16,572 nt of DNA from a virus, in the UHGV virus genome UHGV-1353571. One strand, 5' to 3'. Positions within the stretch are counted from its first letter, which is position 1; the number at the start of each line of letters is the position of its first letter. Shown here piece after piece: positions 1,448-15,860 of this stretch. A program made the translations under genes and the position numbers. Below the pieces are notes generated by a model. The model searched no databases. It saw nothing but the letters and a program-made list of their open reading frames with translations, and was not told the DNA's origin.

Positions 1448-1693
1448 CTACACTAATTTCTTGGACTTTAGCGCGTCTTTGATCAGGCGCGCATCGGAGC
1501 ACTCAGCTGTCAGTCGTGACAACAATGGTGCTGTAATCATCTTTTTGACTTTGGTCTCGTCTATGTCGTTCTCTTCACAGACAGCTGCCAGAGTCTCAAG
1601 GATACTATCCTTGGTTTGGGCGGCGCGTAGTAGGACGATTTCAGAAAATAATTCTGGTGTCATCACAAGCGCTGGCTGTTTTTCGTCAGACAT
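1448..1693 (-). CDS. Hypothetical protein (81 aa)
   Basis: ORF-track ORF; ATG at 1693 preceded by AGGGGAA; overlaps the stop of the upstream gene by 8 nt; no family recognised. Confidence 0.6.
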   Translation of the reverse strand: MSDEKQPALVMTPELFSEIVLLRAAQTKDSILETLAAVCEENDIDETKVKKMITAPLLSRLTAECSDARLIKDALKSKKLV

Positions 1694-1931: not shown

Positions 1932-2232
1932 GGAAAACCCCCACGGTTGTCAGCACGAAACGTACCATAATGATAACCAGCAACATCACTGTAGAAAACA
2001 CTACACGCTTGATCATTTTATCGCGCATGTGGATGAACTGATATGAGAGGATAGCCTCGGCCTGTTGATCGGCACGAACGTTCGTGTCACGATGTGGGGA
2101 CAGTGTGTAGAAGTTGATCTGGTACACATACGCATGAACCAGAGTGAAGAACGACTTCACCCAAACCAAGACAACCACTAACAACAAAGCGAACGTCAGG
2201 AAGTTCGCCAACAACCAATAATCGACCATCAT
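1918..2232 (-). CDS. Small membrane protein with two predicted transmembrane helices (104 aa)
   Basis: Two hydrophobic stretches (WLLANFLTFALLLVVVLVWV and VVFSTVMLLVIIMVRFVLTTVGV). GAGGT ribosome-binding site upstream. The start ATG overlaps the upstream gene's TGA as ATGA, suggesting translational coupling. Confidence 0.6.
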   Translation of the reverse strand: MMVDYWLLANFLTFALLLVVVLVWVKSFFTLVHAYVYQINFYTLSPHRDTNVRADQQAEAILSYQFIHMRDKMIKRVVFSTVMLLVIIMVRFVLTTVGVFHAAV

Positions 2233-2819
2233 ATACCTCTGTTGAAGTCTGGATTATTCTCAATGAAGTAAGAGCCACAAGCCATTATCGCAAACGAATC
2301 CACGAGGTCATCGATTGGCTTGGGATCCTTAACTTCCAACATATCCATTATACCGCGCATACTAACATTGAACAGTGACTCGAAGTGAGCGATCATGGCG
2401 TGTTTATCCGCGTTGCCCTTGTCGGTGAACATCTTCTTCACATGGGATGGCGTCACGATCTGGAAGTCGAAATTGTTACGGCGCAGGGCTTGCTTCAATA
2501 GTGAGGTATTCTCTGCGGTCTGGCATATGTTGTTGGAGTTCTTAGAGTTGCCCATAGCATACCCTTCAAGAGTGATCGCATCCGGCTTCTCGGTCAACAG
2601 GACAGCCTCAGCCCATTTACAGATGTTATAGAAGCGTTCTTCTGGGGTCTCCCACTTCGGTTGCTTCATGATAAGGATGTTCTGACGAATCTGAGTGCAG
2701 TACTTCTCCACAGTATAATATGCGTAGAAGCGCAGATGATCAAAATCAAGAGGGTCTTTATCATCCCAGAAGCACAGGGATGGACAGCCATAGGAGTAGT
2801 CGATTCCGCAATATTTCAT
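2229..2819 (-). CDS. RuvC-like Holliday-junction resolvase
   Basis: Translation MKYCGIDYSYG...ITLEGYAMG...VTPSHVKKMFTDKGNADKHAM...PIDDLVDSFAIMAC aligns by eye with the E. coli RuvC blocks GIDPG (catalytic Asp), AIEQ (Glu), [21 protein letters not shown] and DAADALAIA (C-terminal Asp pair). Assignment from memory of the family. Confidence 0.65.
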   Translation of the reverse strand: MKYCGIDYSYGCPSLCFWDDKDPLDFDHLRFYAYYTVEKYCTQIRQNILIMKQPKWETPEERFYNICKWAEAVLLTEKPDAITLEGYAMGNSKNSNNICQTAENTSLLKQALRRNNFDFQIVTPSHVKKMFTDKGNADKHAMIAHFESLFNVSMRGIMDMLEVKDPKPIDDLVDSFAIMACGSYFIENNPDFNRGI

Positions 2820-2821
2820 GT

Positions 2822-2862
2822 AAATAGCCCATAACGAAGTTTCATTGGTGTATGGGCTATTT
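2822..2862 (-). promoter_or_regulatory. Perfect 12-bp inverted repeat (hairpin, 17-nt loop) immediately upstream of the RuvC-like gene start
   Basis: Seen in sequence: AAATAGCCCATA at 2822..2833 and TATGGGCTATTT at 2851..2862 are exact reverse complements. The element sits between the stop at 2871 and the ATG at 2819. Candidate terminator/attenuator or RNA processing site. Confidence 0.4.
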
Positions 2863-2870
2863 ACGCCGGG

Positions 2871-4893: not shown

Positions 4894-5190
4894 GGCTTAA
4901 CTGTAAAATCGGTTAACACGCACTCTCTTTACCTGAAATTGCTATAATGGGCTTGTTCCCGAGTCATTTGTTGGTGTTTGTCTGTTTTGAATCAGATTGT
5001 CAGTAAAATACCATTTTTCAAGGAGTGTTCTGGGGTGTACAGTTATTGCCTCGCCCTTATGCCTCCATGGCATTGGAATGGTGCTGCCCGCATAGGGCGG
5101 TTTGATGAGCGAAGCGAATAGGATCGAATAAAACAAATAAAATGAACGGAAGCAGAGCTTCCTATAGTATATAAGGCAAAATCAGCTGCG

Positions 5191-5198
5191 CATAAATA
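5191..5198 (+). promoter_or_regulatory. T4-late-promoter-like box CATAAATA upstream of the gp5-like gene
   Basis: Seen in sequence: CATAAATA about 35 nt upstream of the ATG at 5233, a 7/8 match to the T4 late consensus TATAAATA. Baseplate genes are late genes in T4. Inference. Confidence 0.3.
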
Positions 5199-5232
5199 CC
5201 TTCAAATCCTTGTTTGACAACCGGAACTCAAT

Positions 5233-6843
5233 ATGTTAGACAATATGAGATGGTTTTACGGCACCGTTGAAGATGTCAACGATCCAGACCAAAACGGGCG
5301 CGTCGCCGTCCGCATCTATGGCGTACACACCGACGATCCCGTCCTCCTGCCTACAGACAAACTCCCATGGGCGAAGGTACTGATGCCTGCTTCAAATGCC
5401 TCCTCTGCTGGTTTAGGTTGGTCTCCAACGGGTATCATTCCTGGTACTGAGGTTATGGGGTTCGCCCTTGACGAAGCATACCAGAATTTACGCATCACCT
5501 GGACTTGGACTGGTTCAAGTCCTACTGATGGTGCCGACACAAACCCACTGGCTCTCGGGCAGGTCGTTCAATCTGTGGAACGTCAGGCGTACAACGCCGT
5601 CACTGACGTTCCTGTGAAACAAGAAGACGAACCACAACCAGATCCACAACCACCTGTTGGCGGGTATGATCCAGAGAAGTGGATGACAATCGCTCGTGGC
5701 GAATTGGGTATCAAGGAGTATGCCGGAAAGTTCAACAACAACCCGCGCATTATAGAATATCACAAGACAACCTCCCTTGGTGCTTCTGAAGATGAAGTGT
5801 CGTGGTGTGCGGCGTTCGTGGGTTGGGTTATGATACAGGCTGGATACACGTCTACACGCTCCGCTCTTGCCCGATCTTACCTTACATGGGGCACTCCACT
5901 GTCAGCACCACAATATGGCGCTATCGTAGTCTTCCGGCGTGGTAACAACCCTACATTTGGACACGTAGCGTTTGTACAGAAGTTCGATGCAAACTATGTC
6001 TGGTGTATTGGTGGCAACCAATCCGATTCAGTGAAGGTCAGTCGTTTCAGACGTTCTTCGGTCTTGGGTTATCGTTGGCCTGGTCCTGCTAACACAGCCA
6101 CAGCCGCGCCTGCGCAGCAGAATGGTAAATGGTCAGAACCTATCCCAGATCGTACTCCAAAGGAACAACCGACTCCGGCTCCTACTGGGCGAGTACAGGA
6201 TATTGACAACACTGGAGAAACTATGGTTCCGGCTGCGGGTGGCTCCAAATACCCGTACAATAACGTCATGGTGTCCCGAGCTGGGCATATTATGGAAGTG
6301 GATGACACCCCTGGTGGTGAACGTCTTCATTGGATGCATAAGTCTGGGTCTTACAAGCAAATGTTGCCGGATGGTGATGTGGTCAACAAGTCCGTCAAAG
6401 ACCACTATGACCTGACGATGTTCAACAAGCGTTATTATGTCGGCGGGGACCACAACCTGACGGTCAAAGGAACTGAAGTTCAGCGCAAGACAGGTGAGGT
6501 CTATCATTTGCATTCCAACAATTACTCCAACGTGGTTGCGGGCACAGCGCTGATGAAATTCAGTGACTTGGCGGAAATGCAAGCGCAGAATATTCTGCGC
6601 ATTATCTGCGAGACTCTGGAGGTCGGTGGGACATTGAAGGTTCCTAAGATTCTAACGACTGAGATAATCGCTGACAAACTGACTGTCGCTCAGACGATCA
6701 ATGGTAACATCATATATGCCGAAGGTGCTGGTCGCGCTTCTTCTCTGTCAGGTGCAACTCCTGCATCCCCTACGGGTCCGGGTGAGATTGACATCAAGGC
6801 AGAATTAAAAGACAATGGTGGTAATTTCGGCACCAAAGAGTAA
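5233..6843 (+). CDS. gp5: gp5-like baseplate central spike protein with an internal CHAP/NlpC-P60-type cell-wall peptidase domain
   Basis: The N-terminus (WFYGTVEDVNDPDQNGRVAVRIYGVHTDD...LPWAKV) resembles the T4 gp5 N-terminal OB domain. The central domain has the CHAP-type catalytic Cys/His context (SWCAAFVGW ... GHVAFV ... IGGNQSD). The C-terminal roughly 220 aa is unassigned. No T4-type lysozyme motif seen. Confidence 0.7.
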   Translation: MLDNMRWFYGTVEDVNDPDQNGRVAVRIYGVHTDDPVLLPTDKLPWAKVLMPASNASSAGLGWSPTGIIPGTEVMGFALDEAYQNLRITWTWTGSSPTDGADTNPLALGQVVQSVERQAYNAVTDVPVKQEDEPQPDPQPPVGGYDPEKWMTIARGELGIKEYAGKFNNNPRIIEYHKTTSLGASEDEVSWCAAFVGWVMIQAGYTSTRSALARSYLTWGTPLSAPQYGAIVVFRRGNNPTFGHVAFVQKFDANYVWCIGGNQSDSVKVSRFRRSSVLGYRWPGPANTATAAPAQQNGKWSEPIPDRTPKEQPTPAPTGRVQDIDNTGETMVPAAGGSKYPYNNVMVSRAGHIMEVDDTPGGERLHWMHKSGSYKQMLPDGDVVNKSVKDHYDLTMFNKRYYVGGDHNLTVKGTEVQRKTGEVYHLHSNNYSNVVAGTALMKFSDLAEMQAQNILRIICETLEVGGTLKVPKILTTEIIADKLTVAQTINGNIIYAEGAGRASSLSGATPASPTGPGEIDIKAELKDNGGNFGTKE

Positions 6844-8111: not shown

Positions 8112-8187
8112 GATATAGTTCCCGCTTTCAATTTGTGGCGAATGCCAATGAATTACTGGGAAGTATAAGCGCAGGGATTATAGAAGT

Positions 8188-8210
8188 AAAGCCCCTCAAT
8201 GAGGGGCTTT
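8188..8210 (-). terminator. Strong GC-rich hairpin terminator after the nrdH-like gene (bidirectional-looking)
   Basis: Seen in sequence: AAAGCCCCTC-AAT-GAGGGGCTTT, a perfect 10-bp stem flanked by A and T runs, beginning 6 nt after the nrdH-like stop. Confidence 0.55.
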
Positions 8211-8216
8211 AGCTTG

Positions 8217-9626: not shown

Positions 9627-11909
9627 TTATACAACACAGCTGTCACACTGAGTTTCCTCAGCCTGCTTCAGCTCTTCGTCTTCCTTGGCGTCCTTGTTTG
9701 TGTTGTAATACAGAGTCTTGCCACCCCACATATAGAACGACAGGATATCCTGCATCATCTTGGCGCGAGGGATCTTGCTGTCAGGGTACTTCTCTGGGTC
9801 ATACCACGTGTTGGTACTGATGGACTGGTCAACCCAGCGCTGGATGACAGCAGCGGTCTTCAGGTACTCAATACAGTCCAGGTCCCACTTGAGGTCATAC
9901 ATCGGTCCAAGGGTCTCAACGTCCGGGACGACCTGCTTATAAGTGCCGTCCTTGCTACCCTTGATGCTCACCAAGCCCTTCGGTGGCTCAATGCCGTTCG
10001 TTGCGTTGAGGACCTGTGAGGAGCTTTCGGTAGGGGCTACTGCCAGCAGGGTGGCGTTGCGGATACCATAGGTCTTCAGATTATCCTTCAACCCATCCCA
10101 ATCCAGCCCGTATGCCATCCCTTCTGGCTTCTTGCCATTTGGTAGGATATCAAGTGGAAGCGGCTGAAGGTCGGCGGTGACCTGCCCATTATTGTGGATG
10201 GTTCTGCGTTTACACGCCCCGAACTTCATAGCCAGACGGTTGGACGCCTTGACCAGATAGAAGTGCAGGTGTGCCATCCACGCATCCAGCATTTCAAGAC
10301 CAGCTGGTGAGCCATAGCCCGTGAAGTTCTTGGCCAGGAAGTGAGCCACGTTCACGATACCAACGCCCAGAGGACGATAGTCTTCAACAGCTTTACGAGC
10401 CTGAATCGCTGGATAGTCCTGATATTCCAACAGCATGTCCAGCGCAGACACCAACACGAACGCCACGTCTTCCATTTCGGTCGGGTCTTCGAATGCTGTC
10501 AGGTTGAAGGAAGCCAGGGTGCACAGAGCCACGCGCCCGTTTTCATCGTTGTACTGCTCAAACTCACGGGTCGGCAGGGCGATTTCTAAACAAAGATTTG
10601 AAGAATAAATCGTGTCTAGGTTGAATGGACTGTACTCATTCATGTGATCGACAAACGCGATGTAGATGCGGCCTGTGTCTGAACGCTGGTCTAACAGCAT
10701 CTGGAACACCTCTTCTGCCTGCAACTTCTTAGCACGAACCAAACCGGCATCAGCGGCCTTGATCATGTTCTCATACAGAGTACGGAACTTGTCAACGTCA
10801 GCGAAGTATGCTTCATACATTTCGCGGTTGTCTTTCGGGTCGAACAGATACAGAGGCTGCTTGGCAACCAGGCGTTCAAACATCACGCGGTTGATCTGAA
10901 TGCCATAGTCGATACGGCGTTCGCGGTTTTCTTCAGTACCACGGTTGTTCTTCAGAACAACAACGTCATCGAACTGGTAATGCCACAGAGGGATGTACGC
11001 TGTTGCTGCACCACCACGAATGCCGCCCTGAGAGCACGATTTGAGTGCCCCAGTGAGATACTTGATGAACGGGATCAGGCCTGTGTGAACCATCTCTCCG
11101 CCGCGAATAGGACTACCAATCCCACGGATTGCCCCGACATCGAAGCCGATACCCGCACGTTTGGACACATAGTCAACGATGGTCTTGGCTGTTGCGTTGA
11201 TAGAGTTCAGGGTGTCATCAGTCTTGATTAACACGCAGGAACTAAACTGACGAGTAGGAGTACGAACACCTGCCATAATCGGGGTGGGAAGACTGAACTT
11301 GCCTGTGCTGGCATATTCATAGAACTTTTTCACCATCTCCAGGCGGCTGTCTTTGTCCCAGTTAGAGAACAACGCCATGGCGATGCCCATGTACATGACC
11401 TGTGGGGTTTCGTAGAAGATCTTGCTGTCTTTCTTGGAACGGTCGCGCAGCAGATACTTCTCTGTCAGCTGGCCCATGGCCGCCCACGTGAAGTTCTTAT
11501 CGCGTTTGTGGTTAATGACATCGTTCAGCTCGTTGAACTCTTCGGTCGTGTAGAGATCAAGGAACTCACGATCGTACACGCGCTGTTTGATGTTCTTGAC
11601 GAAGATATCCAGCAGGTGAGGCGGCTTGTACTGGCCATAGACAGCCTTGCGCAGATCATATGACTTCAGACGAGCAGCCACATACTGGTAATTGGGTTTG
11701 TCTACAGAGATCAGCGAAGCCGCAGCCTGGATGAGGATATCCTGAATGCGATCTGTTCTCATGTTGTCGGTGAACTGAATCTTCGATGCAGCGATCACCT
11801 CTGACATTGATACACCAGTCAGTCCGTCACATGCGCGGTCTACGACTTCGTGTGGTTTCTCAATATCAAAGGGGACAGAAGATCCGTCACGTTTTATAAC
11901 GTTAATCAT
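9627..11909 (-). CDS. nrdA: Ribonucleotide reductase class Ia large (alpha) subunit
   Basis: 760-aa ORF with an N-terminal ATP-cone-like segment (MINVIKRDGSSVPFDIEK...) and a C-terminal Cys pair (CDSCVV) typical of NrdA. GAGGAA Shine-Dalgarno 5 nt upstream of the ATG. Confidence 0.92.
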   Translation of the reverse strand: MINVIKRDGSSVPFDIEKPHEVVDRACDGLTGVSMSEVIAASKIQFTDNMRTDRIQDILIQAAASLISVDKPNYQYVAARLKSYDLRKAVYGQYKPPHLLDIFVKNIKQRVYDREFLDLYTTEEFNELNDVINHKRDKNFTWAAMGQLTEKYLLRDRSKKDSKIFYETPQVMYMGIAMALFSNWDKDSRLEMVKKFYEYASTGKFSLPTPIMAGVRTPTRQFSSCVLIKTDDTLNSINATAKTIVDYVSKRAGIGFDVGAIRGIGSPIRGGEMVHTGLIPFIKYLTGALKSCSQGGIRGGAATAYIPLWHYQFDDVVVLKNNRGTEENRERRIDYGIQINRVMFERLVAKQPLYLFDPKDNREMYEAYFADVDKFRTLYENMIKAADAGLVRAKKLQAEEVFQMLLDQRSDTGRIYIAFVDHMNEYSPFNLDTIYSSNLCLEIALPTREFEQYNDENGRVALCTLASFNLTAFEDPTEMEDVAFVLVSALDMLLEYQDYPAIQARKAVEDYRPLGVGIVNVAHFLAKNFTGYGSPAGLEMLDAWMAHLHFYLVKASNRLAMKFGACKRRTIHNNGQVTADLQPLPLDILPNGKKPEGMAYGLDWDGLKDNLKTYGIRNATLLAVAPTESSSQVLNATNGIEPPKGLVSIKGSKDGTYKQVVPDVETLGPMYDLKWDLDCIEYLKTAAVIQRWVDQSISTNTWYDPEKYPDSKIPRAKMMQDILSFYMWGGKTLYYNTNKDAKEDEELKQAEETQCDSCVV

Positions 11910-11992: not shown

Positions 11993-12835
11993 TTAAATGT
12001 CGTACAGATCGTTGACTTCCAGCATCAGGCGGGTGAAGTCGCCGCGCCCGTTGCGGTCAGACTTGTCGAACTCGATGATACTGAACGGTTGAACCCATTC
12101 AGGGTACTCATCACCGACGCCAACACCATCGATCTTCAGGGTTCCGGCCTCCAGCTTGGCGTTGAAGTCGCGGAAGGAACTGACGTACTTTTCAAGGGCG
12201 CTGTCGCGCAGGCGCTTGTTGGACTGTTTGATGTCACCGTTGACGAAGATGTAAGTCGAGTCGGATGCGCGGGTCAGTAGGTTCTTCAGCTGCTCCATAT
12301 CACATTCCTGCGCTTCTTCAATGATCAGGAAGGTGTCGTCGAAGGTCATTCCCTTGATGGTCTCCAGATCCTGGATCTCAATGATCCGCTTCTCCCACAG
12401 ATAGTTGAAGAAACCGTCGCTACCTGTGTCAGTCTTCAGCACCTTCTTCAGCGTCTGAATCAGGGGCATCAGATATGGCATCAGTTTTTCGTATGTGTCG
12501 CCAGGGCGGAAGCCTGCAGTCTGGCCTGTTGGCAGCGGAGAGCGCGTGATGACGATCTTGCTGACCACTTTATCGATCAGGAGCTTGGCGGCGGCTGAGG
12601 CACCACAGTACGATTTACCTGTGCCTGCCGGACCGATTGCGATGGTGAGGTTTTCTTCAAGAGCAGATTGATACGCGAGGTTCTGATTTTCTGAGAGGCC
12701 ATGGAACGGAGCGATTCTGAAGTCACCTTTAGAGAACTTCATCCAGTCATCTTCTTTCTGAATTGTCTCTTTCTTACGTGCTGACTTGGTCTTGCCCGCT
12801 GGCTTCTTACTTACAACTTTGGTGGCAGATTGCAT
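11993..12835 (-). CDS. phoH: PhoH-like ATPase
   Basis: Walker A GPAGTGKSY and Walker-B-like IIEEAQ in a 280-aa ORF, with a Lys-rich N-terminal extension. AGGAAGG Shine-Dalgarno upstream of the ATG at 12835. Confidence 0.8.
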   Translation of the reverse strand: MQSATKVVSKKPAGKTKSARKKETIQKEDDWMKFSKGDFRIAPFHGLSENQNLAYQSALEENLTIAIGPAGTGKSYCGASAAAKLLIDKVVSKIVITRSPLPTGQTAGFRPGDTYEKLMPYLMPLIQTLKKVLKTDTGSDGFFNYLWEKRIIEIQDLETIKGMTFDDTFLIIEEAQECDMEQLKNLLTRASDSTYIFVNGDIKQSNKRLRDSALEKYVSSFRDFNAKLEAGTLKIDGVGVGDEYPEWVQPFSIIEFDKSDRNGRGDFTRLMLEVNDLYDI

Positions 12836-12914
12836 GGGAACCTTCCTATATCTCAGGGTGTCATCACCTCTAATTAAGGTGACAACCCCAGCATACCTGA
12901 GGATTGGATAAAGA

Positions 12915-12934
12915 AAAGGCCGTTTCCGGCCTTT
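12915..12934 (-). terminator. Intrinsic terminator after the endolysin gene
   Basis: Seen in sequence: AAAGGCCG / CGGCCTTT stem with a GAAA (GNRA) loop in minus sense, followed by a U-rich tract, starting 4 nt after the endolysin stop at 12938..12940. Confidence 0.6.
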
Positions 12935-12937
12935 GAG

Positions 12938-13732
12938 TTAACTGAAACTCTTGTATGCTGCTGCGAGCTTCTTGTCGTACTGGTTCTTGGCATACGCCGG
13001 ACCATTATAGCGCCGTGCAAATTCAGACCAGTTCTTGTCCTTCAGAGCCTGCCAGAGCTTGGCGTCAGCCTTGATGAACTTCACGAATGCCATCAAATGA
13101 GCACGTTCTCCTGTCAGGAAGTCGTTGAACATCTCCTTGGCGTTGGCATATCCACAGACCTGGCAGTTGAATCCCATGATCTGGAAGAGACCGTAAGAGG
13201 CGCTCTCGTACGCACAATCCTCATCAATGTTGATGGCCGCATGAAGTCGATCCAACTCCGCGTCGCCTCCCGTGTACCCGCCTGCGGAAGGACTGACCAA
13301 CGTCGGGTACATATGTCCCATGGCATTCGCCCGAGCCTGTCCGAACTTCGCCATCAGCTTTTTATACATGATGTGGCGCTCAAATAATGTCTTGATCTTA
13401 CCTGATTTGGTGAAGCCCGTGCCGCGCGACTCAACCTGATTCACCGCCTTGACAGAGGCAAGGTCAACACCAAGATCGTTAGCAGCATCAATCAGGTCTG
13501 ACTCAGTTAGATGATCCTGATGGGCGTCTCCGGCGTTGCGAATAGCATAGGAGGTCTTCGGACCCACGATACCATCAATGACAAGCCCCGCACCCGCCTG
13601 AACAGTCTTGACGGCGTTCTCTGTTGCCTTGCCAAAGATACCATCAGCGACGAGGGTGAAGCCGATTTTGTTGAGGCTATCCTGAAGTGCCTTCACTTCA
13701 GTGCCACGGTTGCCAAGTTTTAGAATGGCCAT
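12938..13732 (-). CDS. Endolysin: N-terminal peptidoglycan-binding domain plus C-terminal N-acetylmuramidase-like domain
   Basis: The N-terminus LKLGNRGTEVKALQDSLNKIGF...DGIFGKATENAVKTVQ fits the PG_binding_1 repeat pattern. The C-terminal region (...YESASYGLFQIMGFN...) resembles the phage muramidase family seen in modular Gram-negative phage endolysins. The preferred start is ATG at 13732 (MAILKLG...) with GGAGGT about 8 nt upstream, not the ORF-track start at 13750. Confidence 0.75.
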   Translation of the reverse strand: MAILKLGNRGTEVKALQDSLNKIGFTLVADGIFGKATENAVKTVQAGAGLVIDGIVGPKTSYAIRNAGDAHQDHLTESDLIDAANDLGVDLASVKAVNQVESRGTGFTKSGKIKTLFERHIMYKKLMAKFGQARANAMGHMYPTLVSPSAGGYTGGDAELDRLHAAINIDEDCAYESASYGLFQIMGFNCQVCGYANAKEMFNDFLTGERAHLMAFVKFIKADAKLWQALKDKNWSEFARRYNGPAYAKNQYDKKLAAAYKSFS

Positions 13733-13736
13733 AAGA

Positions 13737-13767
13737 AAATACCTCCACAATGAATGCAGAGGTATTT
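13737..13767 (-). promoter_or_regulatory. Hairpin sequestering the endolysin Shine-Dalgarno; overlaps a late-promoter-like TTTAAATA box
   Basis: Seen in sequence: 13737..13745 (AAATACCTC) and 13759..13767 (GAGGTATTT) form a perfect 9-bp stem with a 13-nt loop. In the minus-sense mRNA the 3' arm is GAGGUAUUU, which contains the Shine-Dalgarno, 4 nt before the AUG. Minus-sense TTTAAATA (plus 13763..13770) overlaps the 5' arm. Confidence 0.45.
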
Positions 13768-13916
13768 AAAGTGAAAGTGAACTACTCGAGGAGCTGGGGG
13801 AGACTTTGTTCTGAATGTGTCAGCAACCCAGAGAGCGCCTAAAGAGGATTGAATGACTGTGATCTCCTCCCAAGACCTGATAGGGGGAGTTGCCTCCCCT
13901 ATGTTACACGTCTGGA

Positions 13917-14405
13917 TTAGGCCAGTTTGCTCACCAGAGCTTCAACTGCGTCGGCGCTCAGTTTACCCATTTTGACGTACTGAGCTTTTGCTTCGCCGCC
14001 AACAGCTTTCACGATGTCGGTGTTGTCATATCCCTTCTTAGGGAAGACCATCACAGAGAAGGAACCGTTGTTCAGCGGGTTCAGCTGGATGCGACCTTTA
14101 CCGACTACGATGGTGCCGTAAGTTTCGGTGTTTGCTTCGACAATGTGGATGTCGTGACCCAGGTTTTTCAGCATACCAACTTTGTCGGCAGTCTTAGCAA
14201 CCACAGCTTTGTCAACCACAACCTGCTCTACCAGGGTGAAGCCGTTTGTCGATTTCACTTTACCGTTCAGCAGGTTCATGAAGGAAGTTTTACCACCAGT
14301 GAAGCCAGCTGCCTGAGCGATGCGGAACATTTCAACTTTAGCAACTTCGGTGTTCAGTTCGAAAGAGATGGTGCCGTTGGTGATCAGAGTTTTGGTAGTA
14401 GCCAT
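13917..14405 (-). CDS. Hypothetical Ala/Val/Lys/Gly-rich protein (162 aa), probably highly expressed; possible virion or internal protein
   Basis: Preferred start ATG at 14405 (MATTKTLITNG...) with GAGGAA Shine-Dalgarno. Own upstream AT-rich promoter region and downstream hairpin (13883..13900). The antisense ORF 13890..14528 has an implausible composition. Function unknown. Confidence 0.65.
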   Translation of the reverse strand: MATTKTLITNGTISFELNTEVAKVEMFRIAQAAGFTGGKTSFMNLLNGKVKSTNGFTLVEQVVVDKAVVAKTADKVGMLKNLGHDIHIVEANTETYGTIVVGKGRIQLNPLNNGSFSVMVFPKKGYDNTDIVKAVGGEAKAQYVKMGKLSADAVEALVSKLA

Positions 14406-14478
14406 GATGTAATTCCTCATAATGTAGTTGGTGCGTTTCACTTTTCATTCGGCGGTGTGTTGTCGCCCTATGTGAACT

Positions 14479-14507
14479 ATAATAGTGCATCATTATTGAA
14501 GAGTAAA
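14479..14507 (-). promoter_or_regulatory. Sigma70-like promoter candidate for the 162-aa gene
   Basis: Minus-sense TTTACT, 17-nt spacer, TATTAT, about 75 nt upstream of the ATG at 14405, within an AT-rich block containing TTTTAAAA palindromes (14521..14550). Pattern match only. Confidence 0.3.
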
Positions 14508-14549
14508 GTCTTTTTCAATAATTTTTAAAATATTTTGAAGTATTTTAAA

Positions 14550-14570
14550 AGGCCTCATTCGACGAGGCCT
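14550..14570 (-). terminator. Intrinsic terminator after the primase operon
   Basis: Seen in sequence: AGGCCTC / GAGGCCT, a 7-bp stem with a 7-nt loop, followed in minus sense by UUUUAAAAUA. It lies about 30 nt after the stop of the 68-aa gene at 14599. Confidence 0.5.
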
Positions 14571-14598
14571 GGAGGGAGGTGATGTGAAGTAAAAAGTT

Positions 14599-14805
14599 TT
14601 AGCTCGGGCGAAATCTTACAAACTCGCGAGCCAATTCGGCCTGTTCATCACTGATTGGTTCCCCATGGAAGTCCACCTGACCATTCTTCCAGCCGTGGAT
14701 GAAACTCGGGGACTCTTCCCCAGATAGGACATACCCCTCACGAGATTTCAAGTACCCCCGCACGATCTCTCCGTCGTCCAGTTTGTTCAGTTCTTCTAAC
14801 GTCAT
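14599..14805 (-). CDS. Hypothetical protein (68 aa), translationally coupled to the primase gene
   Basis: Its ATG at 14805..14803 overlaps the primase TGA at 14804..14802 (ATGA). No family recognised. Confidence 0.55.
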   Translation of the reverse strand: MTLEELNKLDDGEIVRGYLKSREGYVLSGEESPSFIHGWKNGQVDFHGEPISDEQAELAREFVRFRPS

Positions 14806-15860
14806 CGCACTTTCCTCAGTTCAGCGAATTGTAATGATGCGGCCATACCTTGGTAAACGTTCTTGGCGATCAGCTTCAGGAGGTCTTGTATGGACATGTT
14901 GCCCTTTGATGGCATGACCATGTCGTTGATATCCTTCCAAGGAACGTCTGGTGGGAACAGTACAACTTTGACACCTTTATCTATCATCTTCTGAATACCG
15001 TCACACACCTGCGGGTTCCGGTACTGATTATCAGGGATATAAATGTCACCCTTCACGCTCAGTAGATCAGCGTCGGCCGATGCAAGACAGTTGGGTAGGA
15101 ACAGGCTGTCAATCGGACCTTCCACAACCAGCTTGGTCTTGTGAATGTTCACCCGGTCTTCACCATAGACCTTAGTGTCTTCATCCTTGGGCTTGACTGT
15201 TGCGTAGCGCAGTGTCGCATTCTTGTCGAATGCACGCCCCTGAACGATCTTCATGCGACCATCCTGAGTCCAGAATGGGATTACCAGGCGCTCGTCATCG
15301 GGGATCTTCAGCTGCTTCTCAGGGTTCGTTTCGAACTGGAGTAGATCCTGGCGGAAGTGCTGTGTGTAATACAGGAGGGACAAAGTGCTCTCCGGCAGTC
15401 CACGCCACTGTACGTACTGTCGAGCCTTATGGTCAGGCGGTAGCAGATCAAGCCGTAGCATATTGCCGAGGAGGCTCTCGTCGCGTTTTGCCGCCACTGA
15501 GCCAATACGGGCGGTCTGTGTCAGCTTTGGTAACGGCTTCAGGGAAGGAAGTGGTCTGCCCGACGTATCACCCAGCAGACGGAACTTCTCCATGTTGTAC
15601 TCTGTTGAGAGGCGTTCGTCGAACTTCTTCAGCCAGAACTCAAATGACCAGCCATTCATCTGGTTGCAGTTGTGGCACTTGAACCGGAAGCAGTCATGAT
15701 CCCGATCATAGAAGAAGTATCCACGGCGCTTGTTAGCAGACTTCGTGGAGTCACCGCACAGAGGGCAACGGAAGTTCGCAACAGAACCCACGCGCTCCCA
15801 CTTGAACTTGTCAAGGCGAGGTGACAAGTTGTTAATAAATTGCTCGTCAAGAAATTTCAT
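14802..15860 (-). CDS. gp61: DNA primase, T4 gp61-like (zinc-ribbon plus TOPRIM)
   Basis: Zinc-binding segment FRCPLCGDSTKSANKRRGYFFYD...CHNCN parallels T4 gp61 FRCPVCGDSKTDQNKARGWYYGD...CYNCN. TOPRIM motif VVEGPIDSLFL matches T4 VLEGPIDSLFI. Length 352 aa versus about 342 aa for T4 gp61. Confidence 0.85.
   Translation of the reverse strand: MKFLDEQFINNLSPRLDKFKWERVGSVANFRCPLCGDSTKSANKRRGYFFYDRDHDCFRFKCHNCNQMNGWSFEFWLKKFDERLSTEYNMEKFRLLGDTSGRPLPSLKPLPKLTQTARIGSVAAKRDESLLGNMLRLDLLPPDHKARQYVQWRGLPESTLSLLYYTQHFRQDLLQFETNPEKQLKIPDDERLVIPFWTQDGRMKIVQGRAFDKNATLRYATVKPKDEDTKVYGEDRVNIHKTKLVVEGPIDSLFLPNCLASADADLLSVKGDIYIPDNQYRNPQVCDGIQKMIDKGVKVVLFPPDVPWKDINDMVMPSKGNMSIQDLLKLIAKNVYQGMAASLQFAELRKVR

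Follow-up and report, generated by a model that had tools for sequence, protein, structure and literature searches.

How could a phage avoid premature lysis when its endolysin gene lies downstream of, and in the same orientation as, the genes of an early/middle region? In phage T4, the leader of the lysozyme gene e forms an inhibitory hairpin that contains late promoters (McPheeters et al. 1986, reviewed in PMC3014915). Long transcripts are silent in translation and late ones, which start inside the structure, are translated; the long early e transcripts yield about 100-fold less lysozyme (PMC3014915). A preliminary description of the DNA studied here proposed the same logic for an endolysin gene. 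By computational evidence, every sequence-level element of that logic is present and conserved at this locus, and we consider it likely that the endolysin element is a cis-acting timing switch built like the T4 gene e leader. The mechanism itself is known from T4; the new part is its occurrence in the Ackermannviridae, where it is conserved and present more than once.

Phages of this family are widely used in biocontrol against Salmonella, E. coli O157, Dickeya, and Klebsiella, and the control of their gene expression is essentially unstudied. Our literature searches returned no description of a hairpin switch in Ackermannviridae and, for any phage of the family, neither mapped transcript 5′ ends nor data on expression timing or translation. 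The genome papers of AG3, CBA120, and LIMEstone give no account of the switch, and the word "hairpin" does not occur in the AG3 one. In a 2024 review of Ackermannviridae biology, the words promoter, transcription, and endolysin are all absent. The analysis presented here offers a concrete, testable account of how these phages avoid premature lysis.

The DNA that we analyzed (the window) is a stretch of 16,572 nucleotides of the virus genome UHGV-1353571, which by sequence comparison is part of the genome of a Vi1-like myovirus of the Ackermannviridae. Over positions 12800-14600, its identity to Escherichia phage LHE287 is 98.5%, and the genomes of Kuttervirus, Limestonevirus, Agtrevirus-like, and Taipeivirus phages match at 80-91%. 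The genes around the endolysin leader, in the direction of transcription, are:

14802-15860, minus strand: primase gene
13917-14405, minus strand: hypothetical gene, the upstream neighbor of the endolysin gene
12938-13732, minus strand: endolysin gene, 264 aa, ATG at 13732-13730, with PG_binding_1 and N-acetylmuramidase (PF11860) domains
12915-12934, minus strand: strong intrinsic terminator at the end of the endolysin cassette, AAAGGCCGGAAACGGCCTTT then TCTTT, score d ~ +24
11993-12835, minus strand: PhoH gene
9627-11909, minus strand: NrdA gene

The records of relatives name the endolysin homolog either "endolysin" or "peptidoglycan-binding protein". The gene order (primase, small ORFs, endolysin, PhoH, NrdA, all on the minus strand) is compatible with read-through from upstream, and from this order we infer that transcripts from upstream early/middle promoters would continue into the endolysin gene. 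A scan for sigma-70 promoters turned up nothing promoter-like between the upstream gene and that of the endolysin.

The interval 13733-13916 is a 185-nt non-coding spacer in this phage and in its closest relatives LHE287, A221, and AV101. In LIMEstone1, Kuttervirus, and others, the same interval holds two small ORFs (ORF071/072) that are missing from the window; in relatives, the ORF upstream of the endolysin gene stops 32 nt ahead of the late box. Just past the upstream hypothetical gene, at 13880-13902, there is another hairpin (ATAGGGGAG-GCAA-CTCCCCTAT) without a T-run after the stem, which may terminate weakly or serve RNA stability. This hairpin, lacking a U-tract, and the 185-nt spacer separate the upstream gene from the late box. 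Elsewhere in the window, oppositely oriented ORFs flank a perfect inverted repeat of 11 bp at 8187-8211 (TAAAGCCCCTC / GAGGGGCTTTA, 3-nt loop), which is probably a bidirectional terminator.

A hairpin over the endolysin ribosome-binding site

In the mRNA sense, which here is the minus strand, the endolysin leader reads cacTTTAAATAcctctgca-TTCAT-tgtgGAGGtattt-TCTT-ATG. A perfect 9-bp stem had been claimed for it, and a repeat search returns exactly this, with arms at 13737-13745 and 13759-13767 that are 100% complementary and 13 nt apart. In the ViennaRNA fold the stem grows to 13 pairs (13767-13755 with 13749-13737), by U·G, G·U, C-G, and A-U pairs past the perfect part. The parts of the leader are:

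13755-13767, minus strand: hairpin 5′ arm AAAUACCUCUGCA, perfect part 13767-13759, with the anti-Shine-Dalgarno CCUC and five of the promoter-box bases
13750-13754, minus strand: hairpin loop UUCAU, 5 nt, from the ViennaRNA fold
13737-13749, minus strand: hairpin 3′ arm UGUGGAGGUAUUU, perfect part 13745-13737
13733-13741, minus strand: U-rich spacer between Shine-Dalgarno and AUG, UAUUUUCUU, which complements AAAUA and is a possible terminator U-tract

The endolysin Shine-Dalgarno is indeed paired with an upstream segment, as the preliminary description had it. The sequence GGAGG (13746-13742) lies within the 3′ arm of the 13-pair stem, with four of its five bases (GAGG) inside the perfect part, at a distance of 9 nt from the ATG at 13732. 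A folding-energy calculation, which had been suggested as a check, gives a minimum free energy of -16.1 kcal/mol and z = -4.29; the stem is more stable than those of dinucleotide shuffles, which average -6.4 ± 2.3 kcal/mol, and none of the 200 shuffles folds as well. In terms of computed accessibility, opening the region from the Shine-Dalgarno to AUG+3 costs ~21 kcal/mol for leaders that start at 13771-13900, and ~10.5 kcal/mol for leaders that start at 13758-13753, with a weak alternative pairing to the coding region persisting in silico in these short leaders. Modeled this way, the hairpin would hold back translation from long leaders. The Rfam 15 models give no match at gathering score anywhere in the window, and none with E-value ≤1 in 13650-13950.

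How surprising is such a repeat by itself? Not very! In shuffled sequences, perfect inverted repeats of at least 9 bp occur at ~1.2 qualifying 9-mer starts per 16.5-kb window (in the actual window, 13 starts qualify, spread over 8 places). Since about one 9-bp repeat is expected by chance per 16.5 kb, the case rests on its position and on comparison, not on the repeat alone. One could then argue that the repeat is a chance or neutral by-product with no regulatory role, in which the pyrimidine stretch that follows the promoter simply complements a purine-rich Shine-Dalgarno; C/T-rich positions after TAAATA are common in the family. What chance leaves unexplained is that one arm falls on a promoter box while the second falls on the Shine-Dalgarno, that the arrangement is conserved, and that it is enriched family-wide. 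The pairing also runs past the anti-Shine-Dalgarno and Shine-Dalgarno, taking in AAAUA/UAUUU as well as upper-stem pairs that vary with compensatory changes. Given these, the conservation in six genera, the strong enrichment of such stems in genes with TAAATA, and the z-score of -4.3, we find a chance origin very improbable.

A putative late-promoter box in the 5′ arm

The features that bear on late transcription are:

13763-13770, minus strand: late-promoter-like box TTTAAATA, with the family core TAAATA at 13768-13763, overlapping the 5′ arm by 5 nt
13757 (±2 nt), minus strand: predicted late transcription start, 6 nt downstream of the box according to T4 geometry
1448-1693, minus strand: gp33-like late-transcription coactivator gene (PF16805, E = 8.5e-18)

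The preliminary description saw in the upstream arm a box matching the T4 late consensus at 7 of 8 positions. The overlap with the arm stands, over 5 nt; the 7/8 match to the T4 octamer does not serve as a criterion, and the box matches instead all six positions of the family core. The first two positions of the T4 octamer are not conserved in the Ackermannviridae core. The consensus that fits is that of the family, (C)TAAATA(C/T)C, which is defined in silico only, and not the T4 octamer, and the late-promoter core of the family is sharpened to that form. A late-box variant in the Aeromonas phage Aeh1 resembles it (PMC2988020). Across the family, the bases after TAAATA are generally C/T-rich, and at the endolysin site the TAAATA core is invariant in the nine lineages aligned (9/9). 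A consensus "CTAAATAcCcc" has reportedly been published; we could not trace its source and left it out of the analysis.

In the LIMEstone1 record, the homologous TAAATA at the endolysin site is labeled "putative late promoter". The late-promoter annotation of LIMEstone1 was made by similarity to T4 (PMC3296691), and for that reason we tested the enrichment of the motif independently. In 150 kb of LIMEstone1, TAAATA occurs 54 times on both strands, and 32 of the 54 occurrences fall in the same-strand -70..-9 window of an annotated start, where 2.2 would be expected (~15-fold). Control hexamers of the same composition, in the same windows, are enriched only 2-6 fold. Judged from this distribution, the endolysin box is a putative late promoter, and its promoter activity is what we infer from it.

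The T4 late octamer TATAAATA occupies positions -13..-6 (PMC2988020). By the same geometry, late transcription would start at ~13757, inside the 5′ arm, and of the 13 nucleotides of that arm, 10 would be missing from such an RNA. What would read the box? The gp33-like protein would be part of the machinery, as its domain match suggests. The LIMEstone1 annotation includes a "late sigma transcription factor", gp33, and gp45, and homologs of gp55, gp33, and gp45 have been reported for the family (PMC3184105; PMC3121705).

Put together, the proposed switch would work as follows. Transcripts from upstream would cross the co-oriented cluster of the primase and small ORFs and contain both arms. These long RNAs would fold into the 13-bp hairpin, burying the Shine-Dalgarno so that ribosomes would be unable to initiate. 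After the onset of replication, polymerase carrying a late sigma factor of the gp55 type, along with gp33 and the sliding clamp, would recognize TAAATA in the 5′ arm and begin transcription ~6 nt past the box, near 13757. The resulting late RNAs would be without most of the 5′ arm, their Shine-Dalgarno would be open, and they would be translated.

Three further observations concern the box. A tandem CACTTT CACTTT (13768-13779, minus strand) abuts and overlaps it and forms the 5′ edge of the conserved module; the tandem is conserved in Kuttervirus, Limestonevirus, Agtrevirus-like, and Taipeivirus genomes, in which the sequence farther upstream differs. T4 late promoters have no upstream element. 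A bidirectional promoter was considered and discarded, as the mirror of the box in the 3′ arm is AAAATA, not TAAATA. Finally, upstream of the gp5-like baseplate hub gene (5190-5233, plus strand) lies CATAAATACCTTC, in which the box and the bases downstream of it are almost those of T4 gene e; no hairpin was found over the start of this gene.

Conservation of the hairpin and the question of termination

The block that goes from the promoter through the hairpin to the ATG is kept in six genera (Kuttervirus, Limestonevirus, Agtrevirus-like, Taipeivirus, Miltonvirus, and Nezavisimistyvirus), with upstream flanks that differ. In the first four, the block is nearly invariant from ~12 nt before the box (~13780-13790) through the ATG, and the sequence farther upstream is unrelated among them. 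The other two genera keep the architecture with a different stem: AAUAAAUAcccucug-AUAUACCAA-cagaggguuuuuCAUUAUG in Miltonvirus, whose endolysin is 62% identical, and cAUAAAUAcccucugaa-ACCACC-uucagaggguauuuUAUUAUG in Nezavisimistyvirus. A scan of metagenomes with the endolysin alignment added no further hairpin variants, the homologs found being all ≤52% identical and from unrelated phages or prophages.

We counted covariation by script on a stem-anchored alignment; a MAFFT alignment had gaps in the 3′ arm that were out of register between genera. Both sides change at stem pairs 8, 9, 11, and 12 (numbered from the base of the stem), G·U alternates with G-C or C-G at pairs 9-11, and across the nine lineages the upper stem has a single mismatch. 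All wobble pairs are G·U on the mRNA strand. Wobbles on the sense strand only point to an RNA structure rather than to a DNA palindrome. Together, these compensatory changes across six genera argue that the endolysin hairpin is under selection.

Could the inverted repeat nonetheless act as DNA, either as the palindromic site of a dimeric late-promoter regulator or as a cruciform? It does overlap the promoter, several promoters of the family are embedded in palindromes, and LIMEstone1 has true face-to-face promoter pairs (16682/16704 and 103070/103074). We give this possibility very little credence. Read on the opposite strand, or as a symmetric DNA site, the G·U pairs 9-11 of the mRNA strand become A·C mismatches, and from gene to gene the stem sequence changes and the loop measures 5 to 17 nt, with the pairing retained. 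Moreover, the 3′ arm always lies over a Shine-Dalgarno, 0-17 nt (mostly 3-6 nt) ahead of an ATG, and in the IMG/VR scan described below the hairpin has an ORF on one side only (78 vs. 4 of the 130 matches listed).

A more serious question is whether the hairpin is primarily an intrinsic terminator of the upstream early/middle unit, with the overlap of the Shine-Dalgarno being incidental and the late promoter merely restarting transcription. Viewed as a terminator stem, the hairpin has a G+C-containing 10-bp core (at least 5 bp being looked for) of -12.7 kcal/mol with a 5-nt loop. The sequence UUUUCUU follows this core, although its first U residues can pair with the AAA of the box, and the T-rich tail after the stem is conserved in relatives. 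Using the d'Aubenton-Carafa rule (with ViennaRNA energies), the endolysin hairpin of the window scores d ~ +4, that of phiEa2809 +13, and that of phiMAM1 -6. GenBank records of relatives also point that way. In the Maynard record, the hairpin carries a "terminator" label that overlaps the endolysin ribosome-binding site, the Mutine record lists a terminator under the match at the endolysin hairpin, and the LIMEstone1 "terminator" at 54223-54250 is the endolysin hairpin once the shift of its minus-strand coordinates is corrected.

On that shift, the minus-strand "terminator" features of LIMEstone1 (53404-53425, 54223-54250, 92858-92885, and 47355-47381) lie just 3′ of real hairpins, and in 5/5 checked cases the displacement is 3′ by about one feature length, which looks like a systematic annotation error. 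The "terminator" at 54223-54250 was thus dropped as a separate feature in the coding start, its position in the record being shifted by one feature length.

Several results speak against termination as the primary role. The terminator that follows the endolysin gene (12934-12915), at d ~ +24, scores far above the ~ +4 of the hairpin, and a terminator scan of the window does not call the hairpin. The U-run is otherwise accounted for, as the complement of AAAUA plus the spacer between Shine-Dalgarno and AUG. Sibling hairpins (those of the RuvC-like gene described below and of LIMEstone1 ORF160, ORF173, and ORF191), as well as that of T4 gene e, have no U-tract and score d from -42 to -67, so termination is not the common feature of the class. 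The trait that the class shares is a promoter in the 5′ arm and a Shine-Dalgarno in the 3′ arm. The endolysin hairpin resembles intrinsic terminators in being a stable stem followed by UUUUCUU on the 3′ side of an upstream unit, labeled as a terminator in related GenBank records, and it differs from them by its borderline score, by the promoter and Shine-Dalgarno held in its stem, and by siblings without U-tracts. We judge it unlikely that the hairpin is primarily a terminator. If it did terminate efficiently, translational masking would matter little.

Termination and masking act in the same direction, and they are not mutually exclusive. Given the U-rich tail and the borderline terminator score, transcriptional insulation may accompany translational masking at the endolysin hairpin. 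In the proposed timing switch, the U-rich tail would probably let the hairpin also stop part of the incoming transcription. For the endolysin hairpin and that of LIMEstone1 ORF129, which has the same UAUUUUCUUAUG tail, partial termination may thus combine with masking of the remainder.

Recurrence of the arrangement and comparison with T4

In T4, either the Shine-Dalgarno or the AUG, or both, of genes e, soc, 49, and I-TevI are sequestered, and SD-sequestering hairpins with internal late promoters occur at genes 49 (endonuclease VII), soc, and I-TevI, as well as at Aeh1 mobE (PMC3014915). How close is the endolysin hairpin to its T4 counterpart? The gene e leader, read from the T4 record (which labels the lysozyme merely as "glycoside hydrolase family protein"), is tTATAAATAccttcTATAAATActtaGGAGGTATTATG, and on folding its arms are AAUACCUUCU/AGGAGGUAUU, nearly identical to the AAAUACCUCUGCA/UGUGGAGGUAUUU of the window. 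The segments in common with the Ackermannviridae endolysin hairpin are AAUACCUUC/GGAGGUAUU, which amount to nine consecutive identical pairs with the LIMEstone1 hairpin, and seven (pairs 2-8) with that of the window. This likeness is expected if both combine a late box and anti-Shine-Dalgarno facing a Shine-Dalgarno and anti-box.

In both phages, a late gene for a lysis enzyme sits in a co-oriented early/middle region, its Shine-Dalgarno is sequestered, and a gp55-type box lies in the 5′ arm. The differences are several. T4 belongs to the Straboviridae and this phage to the Ackermannviridae; the T4 enzyme is a lysozyme, whereas here it is a non-homologous PG_binding_1 + PF11860 muramidase. T4 gene e has two boxes, whereas the window has one, TTTAAATA with the family core TAAATA, and a 5-nt loop without a second promoter. 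A terminator-like U-rich tail is found in the window hairpin and not in that of T4. And the switch, established in T4, is here proposed from sequence analysis.

The window has a second case, at the gene for a RuvC-like resolvase:

2820-2864, minus strand: hairpin with 5′ arm GTAAATAGCCCATA (2864-2851), 17-nt loop, and 3′ arm TATGGGCTATTTAC (2833-2820)
2229-2819, minus strand: RuvC-like resolvase gene (Pfam RuvC), its ATG (2819) directly after the hairpin

The stem is a perfect one of 14 bp with a TAAATA box in the 5′ arm and a minimum free energy of -22.9 to -25.3 kcal/mol. In relatives the stem is conserved, with a paired G/C indel and a change from A-T to T-A. Like the hairpin of T4 gene 49, this case precedes a junction resolvase, a functional counterpart that is RuvC-like here and endonuclease VII there. 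With T4 as reference, the window thus reproduces the switch on the counterparts of two T4 genes, the lysis enzyme and the junction resolvase. The gene e device would then be no T-even curiosity, as it recurs on unrelated lysis and resolvase genes.

As in the T4 set of genes 49, soc, and I-TevI, one architecture is found on several genes of a genome. LIMEstone1 (NC_019925) has at least six further genes with the box in the 5′ arm and the Shine-Dalgarno in the 3′ arm. Four of these are structural or tail genes; the others are the RuvC-like gene and one for a 55-aa membrane protein. The coordinates of the six are:

41386-41988
92156-92884
121075-121689
121740-123254
135190-135648
147939-148106

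Many of the 33 annotated late boxes of LIMEstone1 directly precede a CCCC or CCTC that pairs with the Shine-Dalgarno of the gene plus UAUUU. In an annotation-based screen of the LIMEstone1 genome, perfect stems of at least 8 bp that cover the Shine-Dalgarno are found in 7/31 genes with TAAATA vs. 1/162 others (Fisher 1e-5), and those of at least 7 bp in 12/31 vs. 6/162 (Fisher 4e-7). In the strongest cases, including all seven of the TAAATA genes with stems of at least 8 bp, the 5′ arm begins in or right after the box. A difference from the T4 set is that in LIMEstone1 the device also stands at structural genes in late clusters (ORF129, 159, 160, and 173), where the rationale of early read-through is less obvious.

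With at least seven genes in one Ackermannviridae genome, two in the window, and at least 120 IMG/VR contigs with the pattern, could the palindrome of late box and anti-Shine-Dalgarno facing Shine-Dalgarno and anti-box be a portable, self-contained late-only module, used genome-wide and rebuilt on genes that are non-homologous to those of T4 but have the same functions (lysis enzyme, junction resolvase, homing endonucleases)? We put this forward tentatively, as a possibility for which the odds seem to us slightly unfavorable. It would mean that certain genes are translated only from the RNA of their own promoter, even in late operons. Some copies of the module, that of the endolysin included, may double as transcriptional insulators. 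GenBank features labeled just "terminator" or "late promoter" gain a new interpretation. The recurrence of the gene e device is of use in annotating late genes and in building timed expression into phages.

The IMG/VR contigs come from a scan for the exact pattern TAAATACCYC-N3-30-GRGGTATTT, which occurs in at least 120 viral contigs. Among the 130 matches listed, 78 (60%) have within 12 nt an ATG that opens an ORF of at least 40 codons, compared with 4/130 on the mirrored side, and the full TATAAATA box is present in 38. The ORFs that follow these hairpins include a PD-(D/E)XK nuclease, a T4-type large terminase, a recurrent marine ORF of ~275 aa, and GIY-YIG homing endonucleases, the last being a likeness to I-TevI of T4.
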